This document shows, piece by piece, positions 5,181 through 18,201 of a stretch of DNA of 64,000 nucleotides. Origin of the DNA: an uncultured Bacilli bacterium (lineage in GTDB: Bacteria; Bacillota_I; Bacilli_A; RF39; UBA660); contig CAKPCJ010000002.1 of NCBI GenBank assembly GCA_934141575.1, positions 3,899-67,898 on the forward strand, written 5' to 3'. The notes beneath the pieces are model-generated. The model was given only the letters and a program-made list of their open reading frames with translations. It ran no database searches and was not told the DNA's origin. Positions within the stretch are counted from its first letter, which is position 1, and each line of letters starts with the position of its first letter. The position numbers were made by a program, and so were the translations under genes.

Positions 5181-5744
5181 GTGAGTATATTGGGAATTAA
5201 AATGTTTAATTACAAAAGTTTTGGTAATAGAGGTATGGATTTAGAAGGCGATATTAACCTTTCAAATGAATTTTACCTAAAAAATGATATAGCAATAATA
5301 TATAAAAAGCCTACTCCTATACAAGTAACAAAAGTTGAATATCCATCAAGAAGCAACACTATAATTAAAGAAGCATTTTATAAATCGCCATCAACTACAG
5401 ATTACAACGGAGTATACAAAGGAAAATACATAGATTTTGAAGCAAAAGAAACAAACAATAAAACATCATTTCCATTAGGTAATATACATATTCACCAAAT
5501 AAATCATATATCTAACGTAATAAGACATGGTGGAATTGCATTTCTTATTATAAGGTTCAATACTTTAAATGAAATATACTTAATAAAAGGCTCTGATTTT
5601 ATAGAATACATAAAAAATAACAATAGAAAATCTGTTGAATATGAGTACATAAAAGTGAAGGGATACTTAATTAAAGAAAAATATAATCCTAGAATAGACT
5701 ACATAAAAATTGTAGATAAAATTATTGAGGAGGAATCATTATAA
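5181..5744 (+). CDS. recU: Holliday junction resolvase RecU
   Basis: 187 aa. It is directly upstream of, and translationally coupled to, the class A PBP (ATAATGG overlap), the conserved recU-ponA operon. Length and basic N-terminus fit RecU. Confidence 0.8.
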   Translation: MSILGIKMFNYKSFGNRGMDLEGDINLSNEFYLKNDIAIIYKKPTPIQVTKVEYPSRSNTIIKEAFYKSPSTTDYNGVYKGKYIDFEAKETNNKTSFPLGNIHIHQINHISNVIRHGGIAFLIIRFNTLNEIYLIKGSDFIEYIKNNNRKSVEYEYIKVKGYLIKEKYNPRIDYIKIVDKIIEEESL

Positions 5745-8719
5745 TGGCTAGTATTAAGAATAAAATTGATTCTATATTAAAAAAAATAAAAGATAAAAAG
5801 GACAATAGATTAGAAATGAAAAAAAATAAAGCTAAAGCTAAACAAGAAAAAAAACCAAACAGCGAAATAAAATTAAATAAAAAAGGGAAACCAAAAACGC
5901 CTAAAAAACAAATAGCGTTAATAATATTTGATATAATACTCTTTATATGTGTTATATGTGGAATTGGTGGAATTATATTTGCATGTTGGTTTGCAAATTA
6001 CATAGTTAAACATGCACCTGCCCTAGATAAAGACAAATTATTATATAGTGAATCTTCATTGATATACGACTCACAAGGTAATTTGCTTGAAGAATTAGGA
6101 AATGAAAAACGTGATCTAGTTGAATATGACGATTTACCACAAGTTCTAATAGATGCGATTATAGCAACAGAAGATTCAGAATATTTTCAACATAATGGAA
6201 TTAACGTAGCAAGATTTGCAAAGGCATCATTTTGGCAAGTATTAGGCAAAAATGGTGGTGGTGCATCAACAATATCAATGCAAGTTATAAAAAACAACTT
6301 CACAAGTTCAAATTCTAAAGGTTGGGAAGGAATCGTACGTAAATTTACAGATATATATCTTGCAGTATTCAAACTTGAAAAAGAATATACTAAAGAACAA
6401 ATAATGGAATTTTATGTAAACAAACCATTTTTAGGAAGTAACTCATATGGAATGCAGCAAGCTGCAAAAACATATTTTGGAAAAGATGTTAGTGATTTAT
6501 CATTACCAGAAGCTGCTCTATTAGCCGGATTATTCAAAGCACCTGGTTCATATGATCCATATTCTAAACCAGAATCAGCAACAAAACGTAGAGACACAGT
6601 TTTATATCTAATGGTAAGACATGGTTATATTACTCAAGAAGAAGCTGATGCAGCAAAAGCTGTAACAGTTCAATCAATGCTCGTTGGAAAAGATACATCT
6701 GTAAACAAATACTCTGCATTTATTGATACTGCTATTGATGAAGTTATCAAAAAAACAGGACTTGATCCTAGAGATGTACCAATGACTATATACACAACAA
6801 TGATTCCTTCTAAACAAAATCACATAAATTATATTGTAGATGGCGGTGGATATAACTTCCCTGATGAATATGCCCAAACTGGTATTGCAGTAGTCGATGT
6901 TAATACCGGGGCAATAGTAGCTATTGGAGCAGGAAGACATAGAAAAGAAGGAGACTATAACTTCGCAACCCAATCCAAAAGACAAATTGGTTCTAATGCT
7001 AAGCCACTATTTGATTATGGTCCAGCAGTTGAATTTAATAAATGGTCTACTTACCAACCTATACTTGATGAATCATATAGCTACAGTAATGGTAAAAGCA
7101 TCAAAAATGATGATGGTGGATATAAAGGATTACTTACACTAAAACAAGCATTAGGTTTATCAAGAAACATCCCTGCATTAAAAACATTCCAAAGTGTTGA
7201 AAATAGTAATATATATAAATTTGTAACAAGCTTAGGTATAACACCAGAAACAAGTGGTAACTCAACTAGCGTACACGAAGCACACGCAATTGGAGCATTT
7301 ACTGGTAGTAACCCACTTCAATTAGCAGCAGCTTATGCAGCATTTGCAAATGGTGGTTATTACATCGAACCTTATTCAGTAACTAAAATAGTATATAGAG
7401 ATACAAATGAAACTGTTGAATACTCTCCTAAAAAAACTAAAGTAATGGAAGACTATACTGCATTCATGGTAACAAATATGCTTAAATGGTCTACAGAATA
7501 TGGTATGAGTCATCAAGCATCATATATAAGCGGAATTGACATTGCCGCTAAAACTGGTACTACTAACTTTGATGAAGCTACAATAAAAAGATTAAATCTT
7601 AAGAACTCACTTAACGATTTATGGGTAACAGGATATTCTCCAGATTATGCAGTAAGTATGTGGTATGGATATAACGAAGTAACAAGTGAGCACTATAACA
7701 CTACTAAAAACTGGTCAACAAGAAATACATTGTACAAAGCTATAATAAAAGGTATATTTGAAAATAATGGTCATCGTTTCCAAACACCAAACAGCGTAAG
7801 TCTAGTAAGTGTAGAATCTGGCACTGTACCAGCAATGTTACCTAGTGAATACACACCAGGCGATATGATTGTTCAAGAATATTTCATAAAAGGCACAGAG
7901 CCAACTGAAGTTTCACCAAGATTTAAGAAACTTAATAGTGTAACAAATCTAAACGCAAAAATAGAAAATAGAGAAATTAAATTAACATGGGATTACAACC
8001 TACCTGAACAACTTACTGAAAGTTACTTAAGAAGTTACTATAATAACGAGGTATTTAAAGGCTTTGAAGAAAAATACTATAATAAAAGAATTGAAGAAGA
8101 TTCTTGGAAAATAGGAAAAGTAGTATTTAACGTATATTTAAAAGATTCTAGTGGTAACCTAACATTCTTAAAACAAACATCAGATAAAAATTATACTTAT
8201 AAAGTATCTAAAAACACTGCTGATTTAGAATTTGTAGTTAAAACAACTTATACAATACTAACAAACAACGTAAGTGACCCAACTTCAATAAAAATATCTA
8301 CATCAGAAATAGATATTCCAGTATTAACGCTTAGTCTTTCAACAAACAAAGAAACAAATGTTTACGTAGGTAGTAATTACACTTTACCTTCAAAAGCTCC
8401 AGTAATAGTTTTAGACAGTTTAACAGATGTAACAAAAGATTCAAATATAAAAACATCAATAAAAAAAGATGGCACCGACTATAATAGCACTACTCTTGAC
8501 ACAACTACTCCTTGTAAATACACAATAACTTACACAGTTACATACAAAGGTGTTAGCGATTCAATCACGCAAACTATAAAAGTAATAACTAAACCATCAA
8601 ACAGTGGACAATCTAGTAGTTCTTCTAGCTCTTCTAGTAGTAATTCATCATCTAGTAATATCTCATCAAGTTCTACATCTAGTAACAGTTCTAATCCGAA
8701 CATTTCTAGTTCAAATTAA
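5744..8719 (+). CDS. ponA: Class A penicillin-binding protein 1A (transglycosylase/transpeptidase) with C-terminal Ig-like repeats and poly-Ser tail
   Basis: N-terminal TM helix; GT51 motifs (EDSEYFQHNGIN, GASTISMQV); transpeptidase motifs SNAK, SRN and KTGTT; then about 350 aa of beta-rich repeats and a 40-aa Ser-rich tail. Confidence 0.9.
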   Translation: MASIKNKIDSILKKIKDKKDNRLEMKKNKAKAKQEKKPNSEIKLNKKGKPKTPKKQIALIIFDIILFICVICGIGGIIFACWFANYIVKHAPALDKDKLLYSESSLIYDSQGNLLEELGNEKRDLVEYDDLPQVLIDAIIATEDSEYFQHNGINVARFAKASFWQVLGKNGGGASTISMQVIKNNFTSSNSKGWEGIVRKFTDIYLAVFKLEKEYTKEQIMEFYVNKPFLGSNSYGMQQAAKTYFGKDVSDLSLPEAALLAGLFKAPGSYDPYSKPESATKRRDTVLYLMVRHGYITQEEADAAKAVTVQSMLVGKDTSVNKYSAFIDTAIDEVIKKTGLDPRDVPMTIYTTMIPSKQNHINYIVDGGGYNFPDEYAQTGIAVVDVNTGAIVAIGAGRHRKEGDYNFATQSKRQIGSNAKPLFDYGPAVEFNKWSTYQPILDESYSYSNGKSIKNDDGGYKGLLTLKQALGLSRNIPALKTFQSVENSNIYKFVTSLGITPETSGNSTSVHEAHAIGAFTGSNPLQLAAAYAAFANGGYYIEPYSVTKIVYRDTNETVEYSPKKTKVMEDYTAFMVTNMLKWSTEYGMSHQASYISGIDIAAKTGTTNFDEATIKRLNLKNSLNDLWVTGYSPDYAVSMWYGYNEVTSEHYNTTKNWSTRNTLYKAIIKGIFENNGHRFQTPNSVSLVSVESGTVPAMLPSEYTPGDMIVQEYFIKGTEPTEVSPRFKKLNSVTNLNAKIENREIKLTWDYNLPEQLTESYLRSYYNNEVFKGFEEKYYNKRIEEDSWKIGKVVFNVYLKDSSGNLTFLKQTSDKNYTYKVSKNTADLEFVVKTTYTILTNNVSDPTSIKISTSEIDIPVLTLSLSTNKETNVYVGSNYTLPSKAPVIVLDSLTDVTKDSNIKTSIKKDGTDYNSTTLDTTTPCKYTITYTVTYKGVSDSITQTIKVITKPSNSGQSSSSSSSSSSNSSSSNISSSSTSSNSSNPNISSSN
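8597..8716 (+). repeat. Low-complexity Ser-codon repeat encoding the poly-Ser tail of PBP1A
   Basis: Reiterated agt/tct/agc triplets (agtagttcttctagctcttctagtagtaat...) encode SSSSSSSSSSNSSSSNISSSSTSSNSS. Confidence 0.6.
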
Positions 8720-9769: not shown

Positions 9770-10273
9770 ATGTATTATATAAATACATTTATAATATATT
9801 CTTTATTAGGTCATTTTTTAGAAATAACTGCACAATCACTCTATTTAAAAAATCCAAATAGTGGAATTCTATTTGGACCTTGGACACCAGTCTATGGTAT
9901 AGGTTGCATAATAATACTCTTAACTTATAAAACCATACTAAAAAAAATGAAGACAAATAAAATACTTGAAATTTTAGTAGCATTTATAGTAGTATCAATA
10001 CTATTATCATTAATTGAATTTTTAGGTGGAATACTAATAGAAAAAATCTTTGGTATAGTATTTTGGGATTATAGTAATCAAAAATTTAATATTGGTAAAT
10101 ACATATCATTAGAAATGACATTATTATGGGGAATAGCAAGCTTACTATTCTACTACATTATAAATCCAATCATATATAAACTTATAATAAAAATTCCAAA
10201 ATTTGTAACCTATTTACTATTTATATTATTTCTCACAGACTTAATATGTACAATTATCTCTAAAATATATTAA
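9770..10273 (+). CDS. Small polytopic membrane protein (PF06541 'putative ABC-transporter type IV'-like family)
   Basis: 167 aa with about 4 TM helices, a Trp/Gly-rich loop and a GPWTPVYG motif. It is convergent with the ABC exporter pair; the stop abuts the ABC stop. Confidence 0.45.
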   Translation: MYYINTFIIYSLLGHFLEITAQSLYLKNPNSGILFGPWTPVYGIGCIIILLTYKTILKKMKTNKILEILVAFIVVSILLSLIEFLGGILIEKIFGIVFWDYSNQKFNIGKYISLEMTLLWGIASLLFYYIINPIIYKLIIKIPKFVTYLLFILFLTDLICTIISKIY

Positions 10274-11986
10274 TTATTTTTGGAGTATCTGATAATATTT
10301 ATTAGTCTCCATTAATTCTGAGTGCATACCTCTTCCAACTAATTTACCATTATCAATTACGATTATATCATCTGCGATCTTCATTAATTGCGGTTTATGA
10401 GTTATCATCAATATAGTGTGATCTTTCTTTAAACCCTTTAATATTTTCATTATATGTTTTGATGTAGCAATATCTAAATTAGAAGTAACTTCATCAAAAA
10501 GCAATATTTCTGACTTTGAAAGTAAAGTTCTAGCAAGCGCTATTAACTGTTTCTGACCACTTGAAATATTTTCAGCATTCTTAGTAAGCTTTGTATTATA
10601 ACCATCAGGCAAACTCATAATAAAATCATGTATTCCTACCCTCTTACAAGCAGCAACTTGATTATCTTTATTAGAATCTACTAAATTCAAATTTTCCCTT
10701 ATGCTCATATCGAATATAAATGGTTTCTGAGTAACAATTGATACATTTGACGAATAAACATCTTGAGAATATTCATAAATGTCAACACCATCTATTGTAA
10801 TATTGCCACTAGTTGCCTTATATAACCTAAGTAATAATCTAAAAATTGTACTTTTACCACTACCGCTTTTACCAACAATAGCTGTTAAAGTATCAGGTGC
10901 AATATCAAAACTAACATTTTTTAATGTCTGTTTATTTTCATATGTGAAATTTACATTATCAAAAGAAATATATCCATATATATCATCATTAGCATTTTTC
11001 CCAAATTCCAACATATTTGAAGTTTTATAATTTAATATTTTAGCTATTCTTCTAATTCTTACTGAATAAGAGCCTAAATCATTTAACTTCTTATACAAAT
11101 TCTTATTTTTAGATACAACCTCATCATAATAACCAATTGATAGAATCAACATAGAAACATCATAATGACCACCTATTATTAAAAATATAGAAAAACAATA
11201 AATAAAGATTTTACCAATTCCAAGCAGCATTGGAAGTATAACGGAAACTATATCGTTATATTTTCTTTTTAAAACATATACAGATTTCCACTCACTTTTA
11301 TAATCCTCTAAATATTCAGTTATGTGAGAATCCATATTAAAAGTTTTTATTTCCGTATTACCATCCATAACTTGACCTAAAAGAGAAGATATTTTATCTT
11401 GAGATTTTCTCTGAAGAGATAGATAATAATCTCTTTTTTTCATATTTTTAGTAACTAAATAAAGATTTAATAAACTTAGTACTATAGTAAATATTCCCAT
11501 AAATATATTTACCTTAAAAAGAATAACAATTGATATTAAAACACTTAATGAATAGTTAAGAGAATCAAATATCAAGTCAGGTATACATTGAACTTTTCCA
11601 ATATCATTAAACGCAGTATTAATTAAAAATGACGTAGAAATATCTTTAGAAAAGTTCTCATCAAAAAAAGTAACTTTTTTCATAACCTTTTGCTGCAAAA
11701 TATTATGTGTATAATTAGCATCCAGTGCATATGCAACGTAATTAAAATGATATGACAAAGTATATATTACAAAACTTAATGTCAAAAATATTAAACTAAG
11801 GAAAGCATTATTATAATCACCAACAGTAACATGCTTAACTATTAATGATGCAAAATATGGTAATAACAAAATAGTAACATTTGATAAAACAGAAGTTATA
11901 TACAAAAATACTAAATATTTTTTTTTATTAGCACCCAAACTAAAATATTCTTTAGCAATATCATAATATCTCTTAAACATTGTCAA
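10274..11986 (-). CDS. ABC exporter, fused permease/ATPase (heterodimer partner with consensus ATPase site)
   Basis: 570 aa. 6-TM domain followed by an NBD with Walker A GKSGSGKST, signature LSSGQKQLIALARTLL, Walker B ILLFDEVTS and H-loop MITHK. Confidence 0.85.
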   Translation of the reverse strand: MTMFKRYYDIAKEYFSLGANKKKYLVFLYITSVLSNVTILLLPYFASLIVKHVTVGDYNNAFLSLIFLTLSFVIYTLSYHFNYVAYALDANYTHNILQQKVMKKVTFFDENFSKDISTSFLINTAFNDIGKVQCIPDLIFDSLNYSLSVLISIVILFKVNIFMGIFTIVLSLLNLYLVTKNMKKRDYYLSLQRKSQDKISSLLGQVMDGNTEIKTFNMDSHITEYLEDYKSEWKSVYVLKRKYNDIVSVILPMLLGIGKIFIYCFSIFLIIGGHYDVSMLILSIGYYDEVVSKNKNLYKKLNDLGSYSVRIRRIAKILNYKTSNMLEFGKNANDDIYGYISFDNVNFTYENKQTLKNVSFDIAPDTLTAIVGKSGSGKSTIFRLLLRLYKATSGNITIDGVDIYEYSQDVYSSNVSIVTQKPFIFDMSIRENLNLVDSNKDNQVAACKRVGIHDFIMSLPDGYNTKLTKNAENISSGQKQLIALARTLLSKSEILLFDEVTSNLDIATSKHIMKILKGLKKDHTILMITHKPQLMKIADDIIVIDNGKLVGRGMHSELMETNKYYQILQK

Positions 11987-13718
11987 ACACTCCTATTCTA
12001 CTTGGTGATTTTCTAGATTGTAACATTTGATATATTTCATTATTTTGCATTAAATCTTTATGTTTACCTTTACCAACTATTTTTCCTTTATTTAAAACAA
12101 CTATTTCATCAGCACATTTCATAAGCTCTGGTTTCTTAGTAACAAGTATTATAGTATGATTTCTCTTTAATTCTTTTAAAATCGAAGGAACAAGTTTAGC
12201 CGTATCAGGATCAAGTGATGTAGTTATATCATCAAAAATAAGAATCTCTGACGTTGATAAAAGAGTTCTAGCAATAGATATAAGTTGCTTTTGACCACCA
12301 GATATATTATTTGCGTTTTCTCTTAATACTGTATCATATTGTTCAGGTAAACTCATTATAAAGTCATGCATTCCCACTTTTTTACAAGCCTCAACCTGAT
12401 GTTCTACATTAGTATCAACAAAATTCAAATTTTCCCTTATACTCATATTAAATATAAATGGTTTTTGATTTACAACAGATACATTTGACGAATATACTTC
12501 TTTAGTATAATCATATATATTTACATCATCTATATAAATATTACCCTCAGTTACCTTATTAACTCTAAGCAAAAGATTACAAAGAACAGTTTTTCCACTT
12601 CCAGCCTCTCCTACAATTGCAACGACTGTATTTTTATTTACTTTAAGATTAATATTTTTCAATATAGCTTTATCTTTATACTTAAATGACACATTTTTAA
12701 ATTCTACAATTCCTTCTATATCATCAGTGTTATTATCGCCATATTCAATATTAGTATTATATTTATAATTTAGTATTTGATTAACTCTGCATACAGCTAT
12801 ATTAACCTCTCTTATTGTAGTTGTAGAAGATATCAAATCATCTAAATATGAAACTAGATTTTCATGATACGCTATTATAAGAACTAAAACATCTATCGTA
12901 GTATTTCCCTTAATCATTGATAAAAGTAATATTATATAAAGAACAATTCTAAAGAAATATGTTATGAACTTTACATCACTATACATTACAGTACAATATT
13001 TTCTTCTTTTTAAATAATTTTTAGAAAATGTTTTCTGAATATAATTAAGTTTATTTTTTAATTTTTCAAATATATTAAATGTTTTTATTTCTTGTAACCC
13101 TGATATAATTTGTCCAAGCAAACTGCTATATTTATCATCACAAGAAACAACTTTCTTCTGATAATGTGCCACTTTTCTATCAGCCCTGTTTCTTACTGAT
13201 ATATAAATAATAGAATATAAAAGCATTATAGATGCAAAATACGGACTATACATAAATACTATAACTAGCACAGCAAGTACTTGGATAATTGTTGTAAACA
13301 ATTCTGATATCTGATCAGCCATATCACCTATATCAACAACATCACTATTAATACTATTCATTATTCTTTCTTTTGAAAATAATCTAGAAAAATTATTATC
13401 AACATTCAAAAGTTTATTTAAAATTTTAGATTGAATTGTTGTATAACAATATCTCATGTTATAACCATATATCTTATAATTAGCAAATAAACTAATATTG
13501 TAAAGAATATATGTTATAAAAAATAAAAACAAGCTTATGTATGACATATATATATCAGCGTTTGTAACATATTTAACAATTAATGATGAAAAATAGGGTA
13601 ACAAAAGATTCAAAGATTTATAAAATACAGCAGTAATTATTGTTATTACTAAATATTTTCTTTTCATCTTTGTTAATTTAAAATAATCTTTTAAAAACTT
13701 ATAATACTCTCTTATCAT
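11973..13718 (-). CDS. ABC exporter, fused permease/ATPase (heterodimer partner with degenerate Walker B)
   Basis: 581 aa. Walker A GEAGSGKT, signature ISGGQKQLISIARTLL, and Walker B ILIFDDITTS where the catalytic Glu is replaced by Asp. It overlaps the downstream ABC gene by 14 nt. Confidence 0.85.
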   Translation of the reverse strand: MIREYYKFLKDYFKLTKMKRKYLVITIITAVFYKSLNLLLPYFSSLIVKYVTNADIYMSYISLFLFFITYILYNISLFANYKIYGYNMRYCYTTIQSKILNKLLNVDNNFSRLFSKERIMNSINSDVVDIGDMADQISELFTTIIQVLAVLVIVFMYSPYFASIMLLYSIIYISVRNRADRKVAHYQKKVVSCDDKYSSLLGQIISGLQEIKTFNIFEKLKNKLNYIQKTFSKNYLKRRKYCTVMYSDVKFITYFFRIVLYIILLLSMIKGNTTIDVLVLIIAYHENLVSYLDDLISSTTTIREVNIAVCRVNQILNYKYNTNIEYGDNNTDDIEGIVEFKNVSFKYKDKAILKNINLKVNKNTVVAIVGEAGSGKTVLCNLLLRVNKVTEGNIYIDDVNIYDYTKEVYSSNVSVVNQKPFIFNMSIRENLNFVDTNVEHQVEACKKVGMHDFIMSLPEQYDTVLRENANNISGGQKQLISIARTLLSTSEILIFDDITTSLDPDTAKLVPSILKELKRNHTIILVTKKPELMKCADEIVVLNKGKIVGKGKHKDLMQNNEIYQMLQSRKSPSRIGVFDNV

Positions 13719-13787
13719 AAAACTCTCCCACTATTATAGCCATTATACCACACAGTTCGACAAAAAAAAATAAAAGACAATCTGCTC

Positions 13788-14756
13788 TTACTTTTTCTTA
13801 TCAAATGTACTATTATATGGATTATCTCTTTCCAATTTAAATTTTTTACCATTTAAAATTGCGGAAACAATCAGATTAGAACATACCTTTTTTCTAAATT
13901 CTTCTACTTTTTCTCTATCATCACACCTTGAAAAAATTTGATACAACTCAACCTGTAGTTTAGTAGATAAAATAAGACCTAACGTTAAATTATTATTATA
14001 ATTACATAATTTATCCGTTTCAGTAATAATTTGAAGTGCCTCTTCATGAGTAGCGTACTTTTCTAATTGCTTTATAACTCCCAAAAGATTAGCATTAAAA
14101 TATAAATGCTGCATATCTTTTGGATCTTCAAAAAAGCACTCCAAAAGCTTTACAATTTTAACAAGTTCATAATATCCACAGACAAGATTATGGTTAAAAT
14201 ACCTAGAAGCAAGCAACTCAGTATATCCTTCATTAATTCCTCTTCCAATTCCATTCCATGAATTATTAACAAACATACAGTGATCAAAACCGACTAATGA
14301 ATATCCATAAACATACGGCAATGAAGAAGCAGCATGTAATAACTCATGAGAAAGAGCATATGAAAAAGAATAATAAATCGAATGATCTGGATTCCTATAA
14401 AAATTAGAAAATTTATCCGATAGCGGAACAGAATCATTAAAGAAACTATTAATCTTAACAACTGCTAAATTCCTTGAGATATTATCAAAATCCTCCTTTG
14501 ATACATTTTTACCAATAACATCTAAAAATTTTCTTATAACCTTTGGCTTATTACAAACACTTAATTTATCACGATTACTATTATTTCTAATAAAATTTAC
14601 AGAATCATCATCAAGTATAAATTCTTCTCTATTTGTTTTATCTAAAGCATAATTTTTTAAGGTATTTTTAATACTGCTAAATAAATCAAGAGATAAAACA
14701 ATTGCCACCCATTCACCAGATTTTAAAATATTTTCAATAATTTCTTGCACAACCAA
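13788..14756 (-). CDS. Cytoplasmic zinc-metallopeptidase-like protein (gluzincin/thermolysin-type HExxH...GxNExxxE motif)
   Basis: 322 aa, no signal peptide. HELLH at about aa 137, followed about 35 aa later by GRGINEGYTELLAS. Compare thermolysin HELTH...GGINEAISD. Confidence 0.5.
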   Translation of the reverse strand: MVVQEIIENILKSGEWVAIVLSLDLFSSIKNTLKNYALDKTNREEFILDDDSVNFIRNNSNRDKLSVCNKPKVIRKFLDVIGKNVSKEDFDNISRNLAVVKINSFFNDSVPLSDKFSNFYRNPDHSIYYSFSYALSHELLHAASSLPYVYGYSLVGFDHCMFVNNSWNGIGRGINEGYTELLASRYFNHNLVCGYYELVKIVKLLECFFEDPKDMQHLYFNANLLGVIKQLEKYATHEEALQIITETDKLCNYNNNLTLGLILSTKLQVELYQIFSRCDDREKVEEFRKKVCSNLIVSAILNGKKFKLERDNPYNSTFDKKK

Positions 14757-14792
14757 TCACCGTAAAAATATTAACATACTTCAAAAAATATT

Positions 14793-15161
14793 TCAACAAA
14801 TATTACATTGTCTCTTTATCCATAAAATTATAATTCCAACAACATAATCTATTTGATTATCTGTTAATTTAATATTTGGACTTATTCCATACCACTTATA
14901 AAGACATCCTCTACAACATGTTGCAGTAGCGTGCTGTGCTATAAAAACAGGATGTCCCTTCATTGGGGTTTGTTTTCCATCGTTTTGAATTATTGCTGGT
15001 GCCAACCTCTTTATTATAAAATCATATGCATGTTTTTCTATCACATCAATTCCTTTTTCTAACACATAATCTTTATACTTTTGTCCTAATTTAAAACTAC
15101 TTCTAAATTTTGATTTAGAAAGTTTTTCTAATTGTTCTTCCATCAAATCTCTCCTATCCAC
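14793..15161 (-). CDS. Small Cys-rich protein, DUF4186-like
   Basis: 122 aa with the motif HPVFIAQHATATCCRGCLYKWYGI and a C-terminal CNIC. The pattern is recalled as characteristic of DUF4186, from memory and unverified. Confidence 0.4.
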   Translation of the reverse strand: MDRRDLMEEQLEKLSKSKFRSSFKLGQKYKDYVLEKGIDVIEKHAYDFIIKRLAPAIIQNDGKQTPMKGHPVFIAQHATATCCRGCLYKWYGISPNIKLTDNQIDYVVGIIILWIKRQCNIC

Positions 15162-15320
15162 ACTTACAATATTAACACAAATATAGTTTAAATTTTTTTG
15201 TTTGCAATTTTATTAAAAAATTGTAACATTTAACAAAGATTATAACATATATTTATTAATAACAAGTATTGTAAAATAATATAGCTATATGCTACAATAC
15301 ACTGCAAAGGAGAAATAACA

Positions 15321-16021: not shown

Positions 16022-16753
16022 TTATCTTCTAAAATAATCTATTGGCTTCCTAACAGATCCTAATTTTTTTGAAAGTTCATGTACAACTTCAGTGTTTTCA
16101 TCAATTTTAATTTCTGATAGTTCAGCTATCTTTTGAACAATATCCAAGTAATACATCTTAAAAGTTTTATAATCTAGCTTGCGAACTATACAATCTAAAC
16201 AAATATCTCTAAATAAAGTTAATAATTCTCTTTTATTATGAGTTTTTAAAACATCCTCAGGTAATTTTGTTAAATTAAAGCAATCAGGATCAATAATAAC
16301 TATAGAATTCTTGCCAAGAATTGCATTCTCACGTTTAACATCATGAACTATTATTGAATGTTTTGTAAATATTTCAAACAATGCTTCAAGTTCTTTAAAA
16401 TTATCAATAAGATAATCAATCTCCATTTCCAAAACATTTACAGAATCATTAGGGTAATACTTCGCTGTATATGCATCAATATGAAACTTAGAAATACTCA
16501 TTTTATAAGTAAAAAGTGTAAGCAATGTCATATCACTATAAACATCATAAAGTTCAACTAAATGGGGATTATCTATACATTTCAATGTGTCAAAAATTGA
16601 CTGTTTTAATCTATATCTAGATTCTGTTTCAAAATAATATTTTTTAAGCATTATATGCCCATCAGTAAATATTTTTCCACAATCACCATGATTTACATAT
16701 ATCATTAAATCCATATCAATTTTTGCTTTTTCACAATTTCTATCATATAACAT
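16022..16753 (-). CDS. Mini protein-kinase-like protein
   Basis: 243 aa. Gly-rich segment NHGDCGKIF with downstream Lys (MLKKYY); catalytic-loop-like IIVHDVKRENAIL (compare HRDLKPENIL); DFG-like VIIDPDCF. Confidence 0.45.
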   Translation of the reverse strand: MLYDRNCEKAKIDMDLMIYVNHGDCGKIFTDGHIMLKKYYFETESRYRLKQSIFDTLKCIDNPHLVELYDVYSDMTLLTLFTYKMSISKFHIDAYTAKYYPNDSVNVLEMEIDYLIDNFKELEALFEIFTKHSIIVHDVKRENAILGKNSIVIIDPDCFNLTKLPEDVLKTHNKRELLTLFRDICLDCIVRKLDYKTFKMYYLDIVQKIAELSEIKIDENTEVVHELSKKLGSVRKPIDYFRR

Positions 16754-16811
16754 AACTACAATTACTCCTTAATAACAAAGTATTATATCACACAATATAT
16801 AAAAAACAACT

Positions 16812-17513
16812 TTAGTTACTAATGTATTTATAATACTTAGATAAAAATGGTAAGCTATTCTCAACAAACGCAATATTTCTTTCAATCATAAACATTAATA
16901 TTTTATTAGCGTTAACAGAATCATTATATTGTAACATCGAAATTTTGCTAGGAGCTATATTAATATTAAAAAAAGTGTGCATATTCCAAGGCTCTTGTTT
17001 AGAGTTATTTACGTTACTATCATATGAATATATATATTTTAATTGATTTCTTGAATACTTTTGATTTTTAACTTCATCTATATCATCATATGAAAAATCC
17101 TTTCCCTCTTCCAAATTTAAAACTAAAAAAACACTATTTTCCAAAATATTTTTTAGTTTTTTTATAGCATAATTTATCTTACTATCTCGTTTTATCCAAT
17201 TTTTAAATATAGTATCAACTACAATTCTTGGAAAACAGGGATTAGTCATGCAAAATATTCCACATCTATATATAAAAGTATTTTTTGGTCTTAAAATAAG
17301 CCACTTAATCCAAGCATCCATCAATATCAATACATTTTTTTCACCAATAGAAAAAAATACCTTTCTACTTTTCTCTATTCCTTTTGAATTTTTACCTATT
17401 CTTGGTTCTAGTCCGTTTCTAAAAATTGATTGTATATTAGAAGAATTTGTATAATGAAAAAATGAAGATTCCAAATCAATTTCACTAACCTGTTTAAATC
17501 TTATTTCATCCAC
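16812..17513 (-). CDS. Hypothetical protein with DarT/ADP-ribosyltransferase-like N-terminal motif
   Basis: 233 aa. The N-terminus FFHYTNSSNIQSIFRNGLEP matches the aromatic-H-aromatic-T...N-L-x-S-I-L-x-x-G-L pattern of DarT (DUF4433) and related H-Y-E ART folds. The rest is unassigned. Confidence 0.3.
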   Translation of the reverse strand: MDEIRFKQVSEIDLESSFFHYTNSSNIQSIFRNGLEPRIGKNSKGIEKSRKVFFSIGEKNVLILMDAWIKWLILRPKNTFIYRCGIFCMTNPCFPRIVVDTIFKNWIKRDSKINYAIKKLKNILENSVFLVLNLEEGKDFSYDDIDEVKNQKYSRNQLKYIYSYDSNVNNSKQEPWNMHTFFNINIAPSKISMLQYNDSVNANKILMFMIERNIAFVENSLPFLSKYYKYISN

Positions 17514-17541
17514 TATACATCACCAATCAACATTATAGCAT

Positions 17542-18201
17542 TTATTTAACTTTTATTGAATCAATAAAATTAGATAAAGTAGAATACGAAATAGTTTTAC
17601 CACAAATATCATTAATAATACTTTGATTTAACATTTTAGTTACTAAATAATCTTCTAACTTCTTTGACAATGGCTTCAATATAAAATCTGGATATATAAG
17701 TTCCAAGATAATATTTAAATACAACCTGAGTACAAACGCTAATCTTTCCTTTTTAGAATCATTAGCGATTTCTGTTGTATAAGTATCTAAATCTACTATT
17801 TTTGCATCGTTGCCACTAACAAGAATACCATCAATATTAAAATCCATGGGATAAATTTCATTATTAGTTAGCTCTTCTAAATTTTTTAATACTAATTTTA
17901 TAATACTAATTTTAGTTTTATTCGATAATTCAGTTAAACTAGACAAAGTTTTATATTCTTCAAAATAAGGAATTTGTACACCAGCAAGCTTATCATTTTC
18001 CAAAATAATGCCAGTTGGTAACACAGTACCTTTAAGATTACGTTGTTTTGAAGTCAAGCATAATAAATGATATATACTACTTACATTATTGGTATTATAT
18101 AACTTATATAAGTCATTACCAACTATATAAAGTTTAGATTCAGAGCCACAAAAATCATGTTTCTTTAAATCAAAATTTTCATTTAATTGAATAAAATTCA
18201 T
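17542..18201 (-). CDS. Hypothetical kinase-like protein (paralogue-like to 16022..16753)
   Basis: 219 aa. Gly-rich CGSESKLYIVG and a Lys in LYKLY; catalytic-loop-like YPMDFNIDGILV and IVDLD (compare HGDLHPGNIL...DFG). Weak. Confidence 0.3.
   Translation of the reverse strand: MNFIQLNENFDLKKHDFCGSESKLYIVGNDLYKLYNTNNVSSIYHLLCLTSKQRNLKGTVLPTGIILENDKLAGVQIPYFEEYKTLSSLTELSNKTKISIIKLVLKNLEELTNNEIYPMDFNIDGILVSGNDAKIVDLDTYTTEIANDSKKERLAFVLRLYLNIILELIYPDFILKPLSKKLEDYLVTKMLNQSIINDICGKTISYSTLSNFIDSIKVK

Follow-up and report, generated by a model that had tools for sequence, protein, structure and literature searches.

An asymmetric ABC exporter and a gluzincin-like protein of an unannotated family: neighbours rather than likely partners in an uncultured Bacilli bacterium

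The window analysed here is a stretch of 64,000 nucleotides (nt) from an uncultured Bacilli bacterium (GenBank assembly GCA_934141575.1, contig CAKPCJ010000002.1, positions 3,899 to 67,898 of the forward strand), with a base composition of about 26% G+C. On its minus strand, from 15161 to 10274, a program-made list of open reading frames (ORFs) gives four consecutive genes for proteins of 122, 322, 581 and 570 amino acids (aa). They encode a small Cys-containing protein with a DUF4186 domain, a protein with an HExxH motif followed by NEGYTE, and the two subunits of an ATP-binding cassette (ABC) exporter, here called ABC_A and ABC_B. The initial annotation of this DNA had placed the four ORFs correctly and had read them as a maturation-and-export or immunity unit for a peptide. 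We consider it likely that they are instead two independent units which became neighbours recently and are adjacent only in the species-level lineage of the window, the ABC pair having its own promoter. The features of the locus are the following, with positions in the window.

15239..15247, minus strand: extended -10 promoter-like element TGTTATAAT upstream of the DUF4186 gene, kept in the closest relative (L079); a consensus match only
14793..15143, minus strand: gene for the small Cys-containing DUF4186 (YneG-like) protein, PF13811
13788..14750, minus strand: gene for the HExxH...NEGYTE protein, assigned by its conserved motifs to an unannotated gluzincin-like family
14334..14348, minus strand: HELLH motif (H137, E138, H141), conserved in the family alignment and lying in helix 132-143 of the structural model
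14217..14234, minus strand: NEGYTE motif (N175-E180), conserved in the family alignment and opening helix 172-186 of the model
13758..13801, minus strand: A/U-rich stem-loop over the stop codon of the HExxH gene, with a T9 run; a terminator-like boundary before the ABC genes
13742..13750, minus strand: extended -10 promoter-like element TGGTATAAT, 32 nt before the ATG of ABC_A and followed by a putative ribosome-binding site, GGGAGAG
11973..13718, minus strand: ABC_A, half-transporter of 581 aa with a transmembrane domain (TMD) and a nucleotide-binding domain (NBD), PF00664 and PF00005, with the predicted degenerate ATP site
12228..12245, minus strand: Walker B of ABC_A, ILIFDD, with D497 in place of the catalytic Glu
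10274..11980, minus strand: ABC_B, TMD-NBD half-transporter of 568 aa, PF00664 and PF00005, with the predicted consensus ATP site
10490..10507, minus strand: Walker B of ABC_B, ILLFDE, with the catalytic Glu present
9770..10273, plus strand: convergent gene for a membrane protein of 167 aa, CmpB-like, PF06541 (E 5.5e-35)

Gene starts were re-assigned by comparison with L079. The DUF4186 protein probably starts at ATG 15143 (116 aa) and not at the GTG 15161 of the 122-aa ORF, the HExxH protein probably at GTG 14750 (320 aa) and not at TTG 14756 (322 aa), and ABC_B probably at ATG 11980 (568 aa versus 570 aa in the ORF list). With the latter start the two ABC genes overlap by 8 nt, as in orthologous pairs. 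The overlap had been recognised in the initial annotation, but its length had been given as 14 nt.

Judging from its sequence motifs, the ABC pair is an asymmetric heterodimeric exporter with one degenerate ATP site. The initial annotation had come to the same view from FDD versus FDE at Walker B, and several further elements agree with it. The Walker A motifs are GEAGSGKT in ABC_A and GKSGSGKS in ABC_B. At the H-loop position ABC_A has TKK, i.e. Lys for His, which the initial annotation had not noticed, and ABC_B has THK (ITHK). The signature is canonical in ABC_A (ISGGQ) and deviant in ABC_B (ISSGQ). More than 1,500 homologues of ABC_A were found at E <= 1e-60, and among the best 120 (58–98% identical, 580–616 aa, nearly all 580–581 aa) Asp-Asp is found at Walker B in 117 and Lys at the H-loop position in 115. 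The NBD dimer of such exporters is head-to-tail, as established from TM287/288 and BmrCD, and therefore the deviant elements all come together in the same composite site, while the second site consists of consensus elements; this is the pattern that defines heterodimers with one degenerate site. The exporter would thus be an ABCB-type (type IV fold) heterodimer working like BmrCD or TM287/288. Its consensus site, made of Walker A and Walker B of ABC_B (with Glu499 and the His) and ISGGQ of ABC_A, would hydrolyse ATP and drive the switch from the inward to the outward state. Its degenerate site, made of Walker A, Asp497 and Lys528 of ABC_A and ISSGQ of ABC_B, may bind ATP and hold or regulate the NBD dimerisation.

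The pair resembles the class of TM287/288, BmrCD, LmrCD and EfrCD in having two adjacent, overlapping and co-oriented TMD-NBD genes, with Asp for the Walker B Glu and a non-His H-loop in one subunit and a deviant signature in the partner. The nearest solved sequences are ABCB1-type, and the bacterial ones among them include TM287 and TM288 (E ~1e-54). In contrast with this class, the two subunits of the window share an unusually high identity of 40%, and among uncultured gut Bacilli the pair makes up an orthogroup of its own that is tightly conserved. Neither subunit scores above the cut-off of any NCBIfam equivalog. The exporter is a clean and strongly conserved example of a heterodimer with one degenerate site in these bacteria, and as such a comparative data point and not new biology.

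Eight orthologous ABC proteins were inspected in their contigs. Most of the pairs have 580 and 568 aa and overlap by 8 nt; only L086/L087, with a second subunit of 569 aa, and L090/L091, with a second gene that is apparently split, depart from this. The gene surroundings of the pairs at about 60% identity are of at least five unrelated kinds. Upstream of orthologous pairs we find xseB, a phage-derived segment, the gene for a 673-aa protein, a divergent AAA_21 gene, an HD-domain gene, or the gene for a 293-aa protein. A hidden Markov model (HMM) of the HExxH family detected no member in any of the inspected orthologous ABC loci except L079, in which the four-gene arrangement is kept. Locus L088 has an ABC_A that is 75% identical and the same synteny with the CmpB-like gene, holA and a penicillin-binding protein (PBP) gene as the window, yet it contains no HExxH gene. 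Therefore, the adjacency of the HExxH gene and the ABC pair is confined to the species of the window and one relative (80% identity). The initial annotation had proposed to look for co-occurrence of the peptidase and the ABC pair across genomes; what this search gives is ABC orthologues without an HExxH gene, and HExxH genes at seven or more mutually unrelated genomic positions. The ABC pair itself is 96–97% identical to that of L079, with a ratio of nonsynonymous to synonymous substitution rates (dN/dS) of 0.07–0.08. Conserved this strongly, the exporter would serve a core export function in the physiology of the cell rather than being dedicated to peptides.

The proteins encoded upstream of several pairs (673, 293 and, in L088, 392 aa) were considered as equivalent accessory proteins. 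This idea was rejected, as they share no common motif and none has an HExxH. The 673-aa protein of L083 (4963..6984), which has no Pfam domain and is encoded 17 nt upstream of the orthologous ABC pair, contains near its C-terminus a Fic-like stretch (...FRSGNKRTAKSLFN...), seen by eye only.

The signals between the genes, i.e. promoters, ribosome-binding sites and stem-loops, are predictions from sequence that include consensus matches. The spacer before ABC_A is 69 nt long. A TGnTAnAAT element is present at -28 to -36 before ABC_A in 7 of 9 orthologous loci, whatever the upstream gene. The stem-loop at 13758..13801 has a folding energy of -23.3 kcal/mol according to RNAfold (z -5.9), and none of 200 shuffled sequences was as stable; a terminator scan that is biased towards GC-rich stems did not flag it. 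At the other end, the TGTTATAAT element is a probable promoter of a transcript that spans the DUF4186 and HExxH genes. These two genes are separated by 36–42 nt carrying a ribosome-binding site and are probably co-transcribed. The first unit would thus be the ABC_A/ABC_B exporter, transcribed from its own extended -10 promoter, and the second the DUF4186 gene followed, 36–42 nt later, by one paralogue of a fast-evolving gluzincin-like family. A search for Rfam cis-regulatory RNAs between 8 and 19 kb of the window found none, the only hit being a tRNA.

An octamer, TTGTCGAA (13756..13763), lies immediately upstream of the extended -10 of ABC_A and is also present in L079 and L088. Its counterpart before the -10 of ABC_A is ATGTCGAA in L086 and the reverse complement, TTCGACAA, in L089. 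Its distance from the -10 is too short for a -35 box, and therefore the octamer may be an operator. As a regulatory motif of the whole window TTGTCGAA was uninformative, with 4 copies versus 0.95 expected.

The contexts and signals described above bear directly on the proposal that the DUF4186 protein, the zinc peptidase and the ABC heterodimer are encoded in a single operon for the maturation and export of a peptide, or for immunity to such a peptide. To this proposal we assign a very low probability. It is favoured by four co-directional genes with spacers of only 36–69 nt, by the conservation of the arrangement in L079, and by the top NCBIfam models for the transporters, which include bacteriocin and NHLP exporters, all far below their cut-offs: NHLP bacteriocin export is the best-scoring model for both subunits and bacteriocin_ABC also matches (245 bits versus a cut-off of 853). 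The window pair does belong to the same transporter superfamily as the C39-type peptide exporters (bacteriocin, NHLP, SunT). However, it has no C39 domain, precursor gene or conserved accessory gene: the alignments with TIGR03796 and TIGR01193 start only at model positions ~146–150, so that the N-terminal C39 domain is missing. No credible precursor ORF was found in 14757..14792 and 15162..15320, the two intervals which the initial annotation had pointed out for such a gene, nor in 13719..13787; the only small ORFs are one of 25 aa with a TTG start in the divergent promoter region and one of 45 aa running from inside the HExxH gene to the start of ABC_A. In all orthologue contexts inspected, L088 included, the ABC pair is kept while the peptidase gene is missing, most HExxH paralogues have no exporter nearby, and the two units are parted by a promoter-like element and a stem-loop. 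A separate promoter and a lack of co-conservation are observations that the initial annotation had itself listed as speaking against its proposal, and both are what we find, the promoter as a candidate element. A third one, that the HExxH protein belongs to a ubiquitous housekeeping family, does not apply. Co-directional adjacency in a single genome was misleading here, and the comparative context dissolved the apparent operon.

A second association of the two kinds of genes also has to be considered. Only one other synteny group has full-length ABC exporters adjoining an HExxH gene. It comprises 13 species-level genomes (L035, L037, L039, L040, L042, L045, L048, L049, L050, L053, L058, L059 and L061; for example L040, 4924..14624) plus one looser case. 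The gene order in the 13 genomes is MarR, ABC, ABC, HExxH, a 132-aa protein, response regulator, histidine kinase, a 152-aa protein and holA. One ABC subunit has 586 aa and the second about 775 aa with a long insertion. This pair is of a different subfamily, non-orthologous and 25–34% identical to the window pair, and the HExxH protein, encoded immediately downstream of the second ABC gene, is of a distant subfamily. In both the window and this group an HExxH gene and an ABC heterodimer lie upstream of holA, with their order swapped. The spacer between the second ABC gene and the HExxH gene contains a canonical intrinsic terminator whose stem varies by compensatory changes between genomes, followed in most loci by a -35 and an extended -10 promoter-like element. 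Thus, while an HExxH gene of a second subfamily abutting an ABC heterodimer in 13 genomes could be taken in favour of a single operon, a terminator and a promoter-like element part the genes in this group as well.

Some observations weigh against our preferred reading of two independent units. The four genes run in the same direction with little space between them, and read-through transcription is possible. The adjacency of HExxH and ABC genes has arisen or persisted twice, since a second HExxH subfamily abuts another ABC heterodimer. In addition, the HExxH protein has no sequence-level link to any peptidase family, and because of this its enzymatic activity is something that we infer. The second, independent ABC adjacency is also the reason why we keep a small probability for a functional tie, according to which the HExxH proteins would be undescribed zinc peptidases of one lineage of uncultured gut Bacilli, membrane-tethered at the cytoplasmic face and working with asymmetric ABC heterodimers despite separate promoters. 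If true, they could take part in the quality control or regulation of the exporter, or trim substrates there.

The HExxH protein itself has no match in Pfam, NCBIfam, PHROGs or PADLOC. The HMM searches proposed in the initial annotation were therefore successful for the 122-aa protein, which is PF13811, but not for the 322-aa protein, which is without a Pfam match. The M4 models PF01447 and PF02868 do not match it, and neither do the M56 and M78 models; the only Pfam match at E <= 0.1 is DUF7951, which is noise. Its motifs are nevertheless well defined. All of the 31 homologues aligned have E138, H141, G156, E176-G-Y-T-E180, Y195 and E206, and at least 90% of them have H137. Because of this invariance or near-invariance, HELLH and NEGYTE are a signature of the family and not a chance occurrence. 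An AlphaFold2 model (pLDDT 83.6, above 90 over the catalytic core; pTM 0.83) places the HExxH on its helix, then a three-stranded beta insertion, and then NEGYTE at the start of the next helix. A Foldseek search with this model gave nothing at E <= 0.001 in the PDB or among the viral structures of BFVD. The chlorovirus capsid protein P4, a sequence-profile match in the PDB with E 0.019, was marginal and was treated as noise. The literature, searched in general terms for a membrane-anchored family of gluzincins like this one, gave nothing specific.

From alignment and model we conclude that the protein is gluzincin-like, belonging to an unassigned family and not to M4. The hallmark of the gluzincin clan MA(E), an HExxH on a helix and a Glu on a downstream helix, is seen in the alignment and the model rather than in ligand geometry. 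The likeness to the gluzincins (M1, M4 thermolysin, M9, M30, M61) consists of the HExxH helix, the invariant Glu in N-E-G and the helix that follows; motifs of this kind are '...NEGF/A...' in M1 and NEAxSD (GxxNEAxSD) in thermolysin. At the sequence level, none of these families matches the protein. In thermolysin the Glu follows the second His by 19 residues (about 20), and in M1 and M4 the spacing is 18–19 residues. Here, with an inserted beta-hairpin, it is 34 residues to Glu176. Of the "thermolysin-motif" peptidase of the initial annotation, the gluzincin-type HExxH...E thus stands, but not the relation to thermolysin and M4, given this spacing and the missing M4 match. As a putative zinc metallopeptidase, the protein would bind zinc through His137 and His141 of the active-site helix and through Glu176 of the helix after it, with Glu138 as the general base. 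The protein also differs from the gluzincins in its small size (~320 aa), in the lack of a propeptide and signal peptide, and in its predicted location at the cytoplasmic face. In many homologues the N-terminus forms a hydrophobic helix, after which comes a stretch rich in K/R, and therefore an N-out/C-in topology is predicted for them. The catalytic domain would then face the cytoplasm, tethered in many paralogues through the N-terminal membrane helix. In the window protein this helix is weakly hydrophobic (Kyte-Doolittle 1.15), and a cytoplasmic location is plausible.

The family is large. A word-indexed search retrieved 59 relatives, none of them carrying a Pfam domain, and a profile search of 1.84 billion representatives gave 2,049 clusters at 50% identity with E <= 1e-3, of which 913 had E <= 1e-30. 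Members are mostly 300–370 aa long, and ten longer ones had no Pfam domain either. In a scan of one genome per species, 135 relatives were found in 78 loci, all from metagenome-assembled genomes (MAGs) of gut Bacilli, Firmicutes or "Tenericutes". Genomes of ~1.3–1.5 Mb typically hold 2–4 copies and tandem pairs are frequent, which indicates a lineage-specific expansion of paralogues. By clustering of the neighbouring ORFs, the HExxH genes occupy at least seven distinct conserved syntenic positions, for example beside infB/nusA and a metallophosphoesterase gene, or in front of the suf genes. No partner gene is common to these positions, and a DUF4186 gene adjoins the HExxH gene in 0 of the 78 loci. 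ABC-NBD genes make up ~5% of the ORFs neighbouring HExxH paralogues (41/825). An enrichment of ABC ATPases near the family was examined and found unconvincing, the adjacent cases collapsing to few synteny groups, one of them with SufC. We conclude that the family is lineage-restricted, unannotated and not of the ubiquitous housekeeping type. With about 2,000 clusters at 50% identity and no Pfam or NCBIfam model, it merits a family model and a biochemical test, and its recognition is a more useful outcome of this work than the exporter.

Tandem HExxH genes are present in L004, L008, L009, L012, L017, L018 and L026, and three copies each in the assemblies CALVIE01, CALVIJ01, CALVXV01, CALVRA01 and CAWVFK01. 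Three loci with members of the family (L001, L005 and L020) are labelled 'uncultured Muribaculaceae bacterium', most likely by a binning or labelling error in the MAGs.

The HExxH gene is also the fastest-evolving one of the locus. Between the window and L079 (10001..10963) its product is 80.3% identical, versus 96–97% for the ABC proteins and 90–95% for the remaining neighbours to which both measures were applied. Its dN/dS is 0.24, indicating purifying selection, versus 0.07–0.20 for the neighbours. The synonymous divergence (dS) is highest in the HExxH gene (0.46), also high in the DUF4186 gene (0.39), and 0.15–0.23 in the ABC genes and holA; the high values of the DUF4186-HExxH segment could stem from a weaker constraint on codons or from recombination events that differ from those of the other genes. 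This rapid divergence, together with the tandem duplicates, the 2–4 paralogues per genome, and a spread over ~2,000 clusters with all 135 scanned relatives in MAGs of the gut Bacilli type, could be that of a fast-diversifying conflict or defence factor directed against phages or competitors, or of a non-catalytic zincin-like scaffold, its adjacency to the exporter being incidental. We regard this as unlikely. There is no PADLOC or PHROG match, the paralogues reside at stable syntenic positions among core genes and not in islands, and every segment of the gene has a dN/dS far below 1. The catalytic residues are invariant, which suggests that activity is probably retained.

By analogy with BlaR1/MecR1 and ImmA, the HExxH protein could alternatively be a membrane-tethered regulatory protease that cleaves a repressor or another regulator and so controls neighbouring genes, including those of the exporter. 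The predicted N-out/C-in tether, with the zinc domain at the cytoplasmic face, would suit this role, and the locus of the 13 genomes opens with a gene for a MarR-type repressor. However, the window unit has no helix-turn-helix or repressor gene, the family lacks a sensor domain and is found beside many unrelated housekeeping genes, and M56 and M78 models do not match. We give this possibility hardly any credence. Two independent units thus remain the reading that we prefer.

The first gene of the upstream unit was predicted as DUF4186-like in the initial annotation, and this is confirmed by a full-length match to PF13811 (E 2.5e-48, 163 bits versus a gathering cut-off of 25, model positions 2–109 of 109). 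The protein is 93% identical to its 116-aa homologue in L079, with a dN/dS of 0.07. The likeness to Escherichia coli YneG extends over the full length of PF13811, including the conserved GKQTP...CCRGC region. YneG is an orphan encoded in the yneI(sad)-yneH(glsB)-yneG operon (PMC9283627; PMC11502571), and a literature search on DUF4186 found nothing beyond its mention as this orphan. In contrast to yneG in the sad-glsB operon, the gene of the window precedes the unrelated HExxH gene. In L088, the DUF4186 protein is reduced to its C-terminal half (residues 51–118), encoded directly upstream of ABC_A. This suggests a turnover of genes immediately in front of the conserved ABC pair. The gene that precedes the truncated one in L088 (1932..3383) encodes the 392-aa protein, which has neither a Pfam domain nor an HExxH motif.

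At the other end of the locus, the convergent PF06541 gene, whose family had been predicted correctly in the initial annotation, ends at 10273 and abuts the stop of ABC_B at 10274. A CmpB-like PF06541 gene beside the ABC pair is kept in L079 and L088 only, and none adjoins the orthologous pairs inspected at ~60% identity. We consider it a neighbour of the exporter locus, with only putative membership in the unit. Beyond it sit holA and the class A PBP gene.

Upstream of the four genes, three consecutive minus-strand genes (16022..18201) encode proteins of 243, 233 and 219 aa that have no match in Pfam, NCBIfam, PHROG or PADLOC. They are kept in L079 at 89–91% identity. The 243-aa and 219-aa proteins show no detectable paralogy (BLASTP E 1.3). 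In the 243-aa protein, a motif resembling the catalytic loop of protein kinases, IVHDVKRENAIL...IIDPD, was spotted by eye. The class A PBP (5744..8719, plus strand) has 991 aa with transglycosylase and transpeptidase domains, and at its end a long, low-complexity tail rich in Ser and Asn (...SGQSSSSSSSSSSNSSSSNISSSSTSSNSSNPNISSSN).

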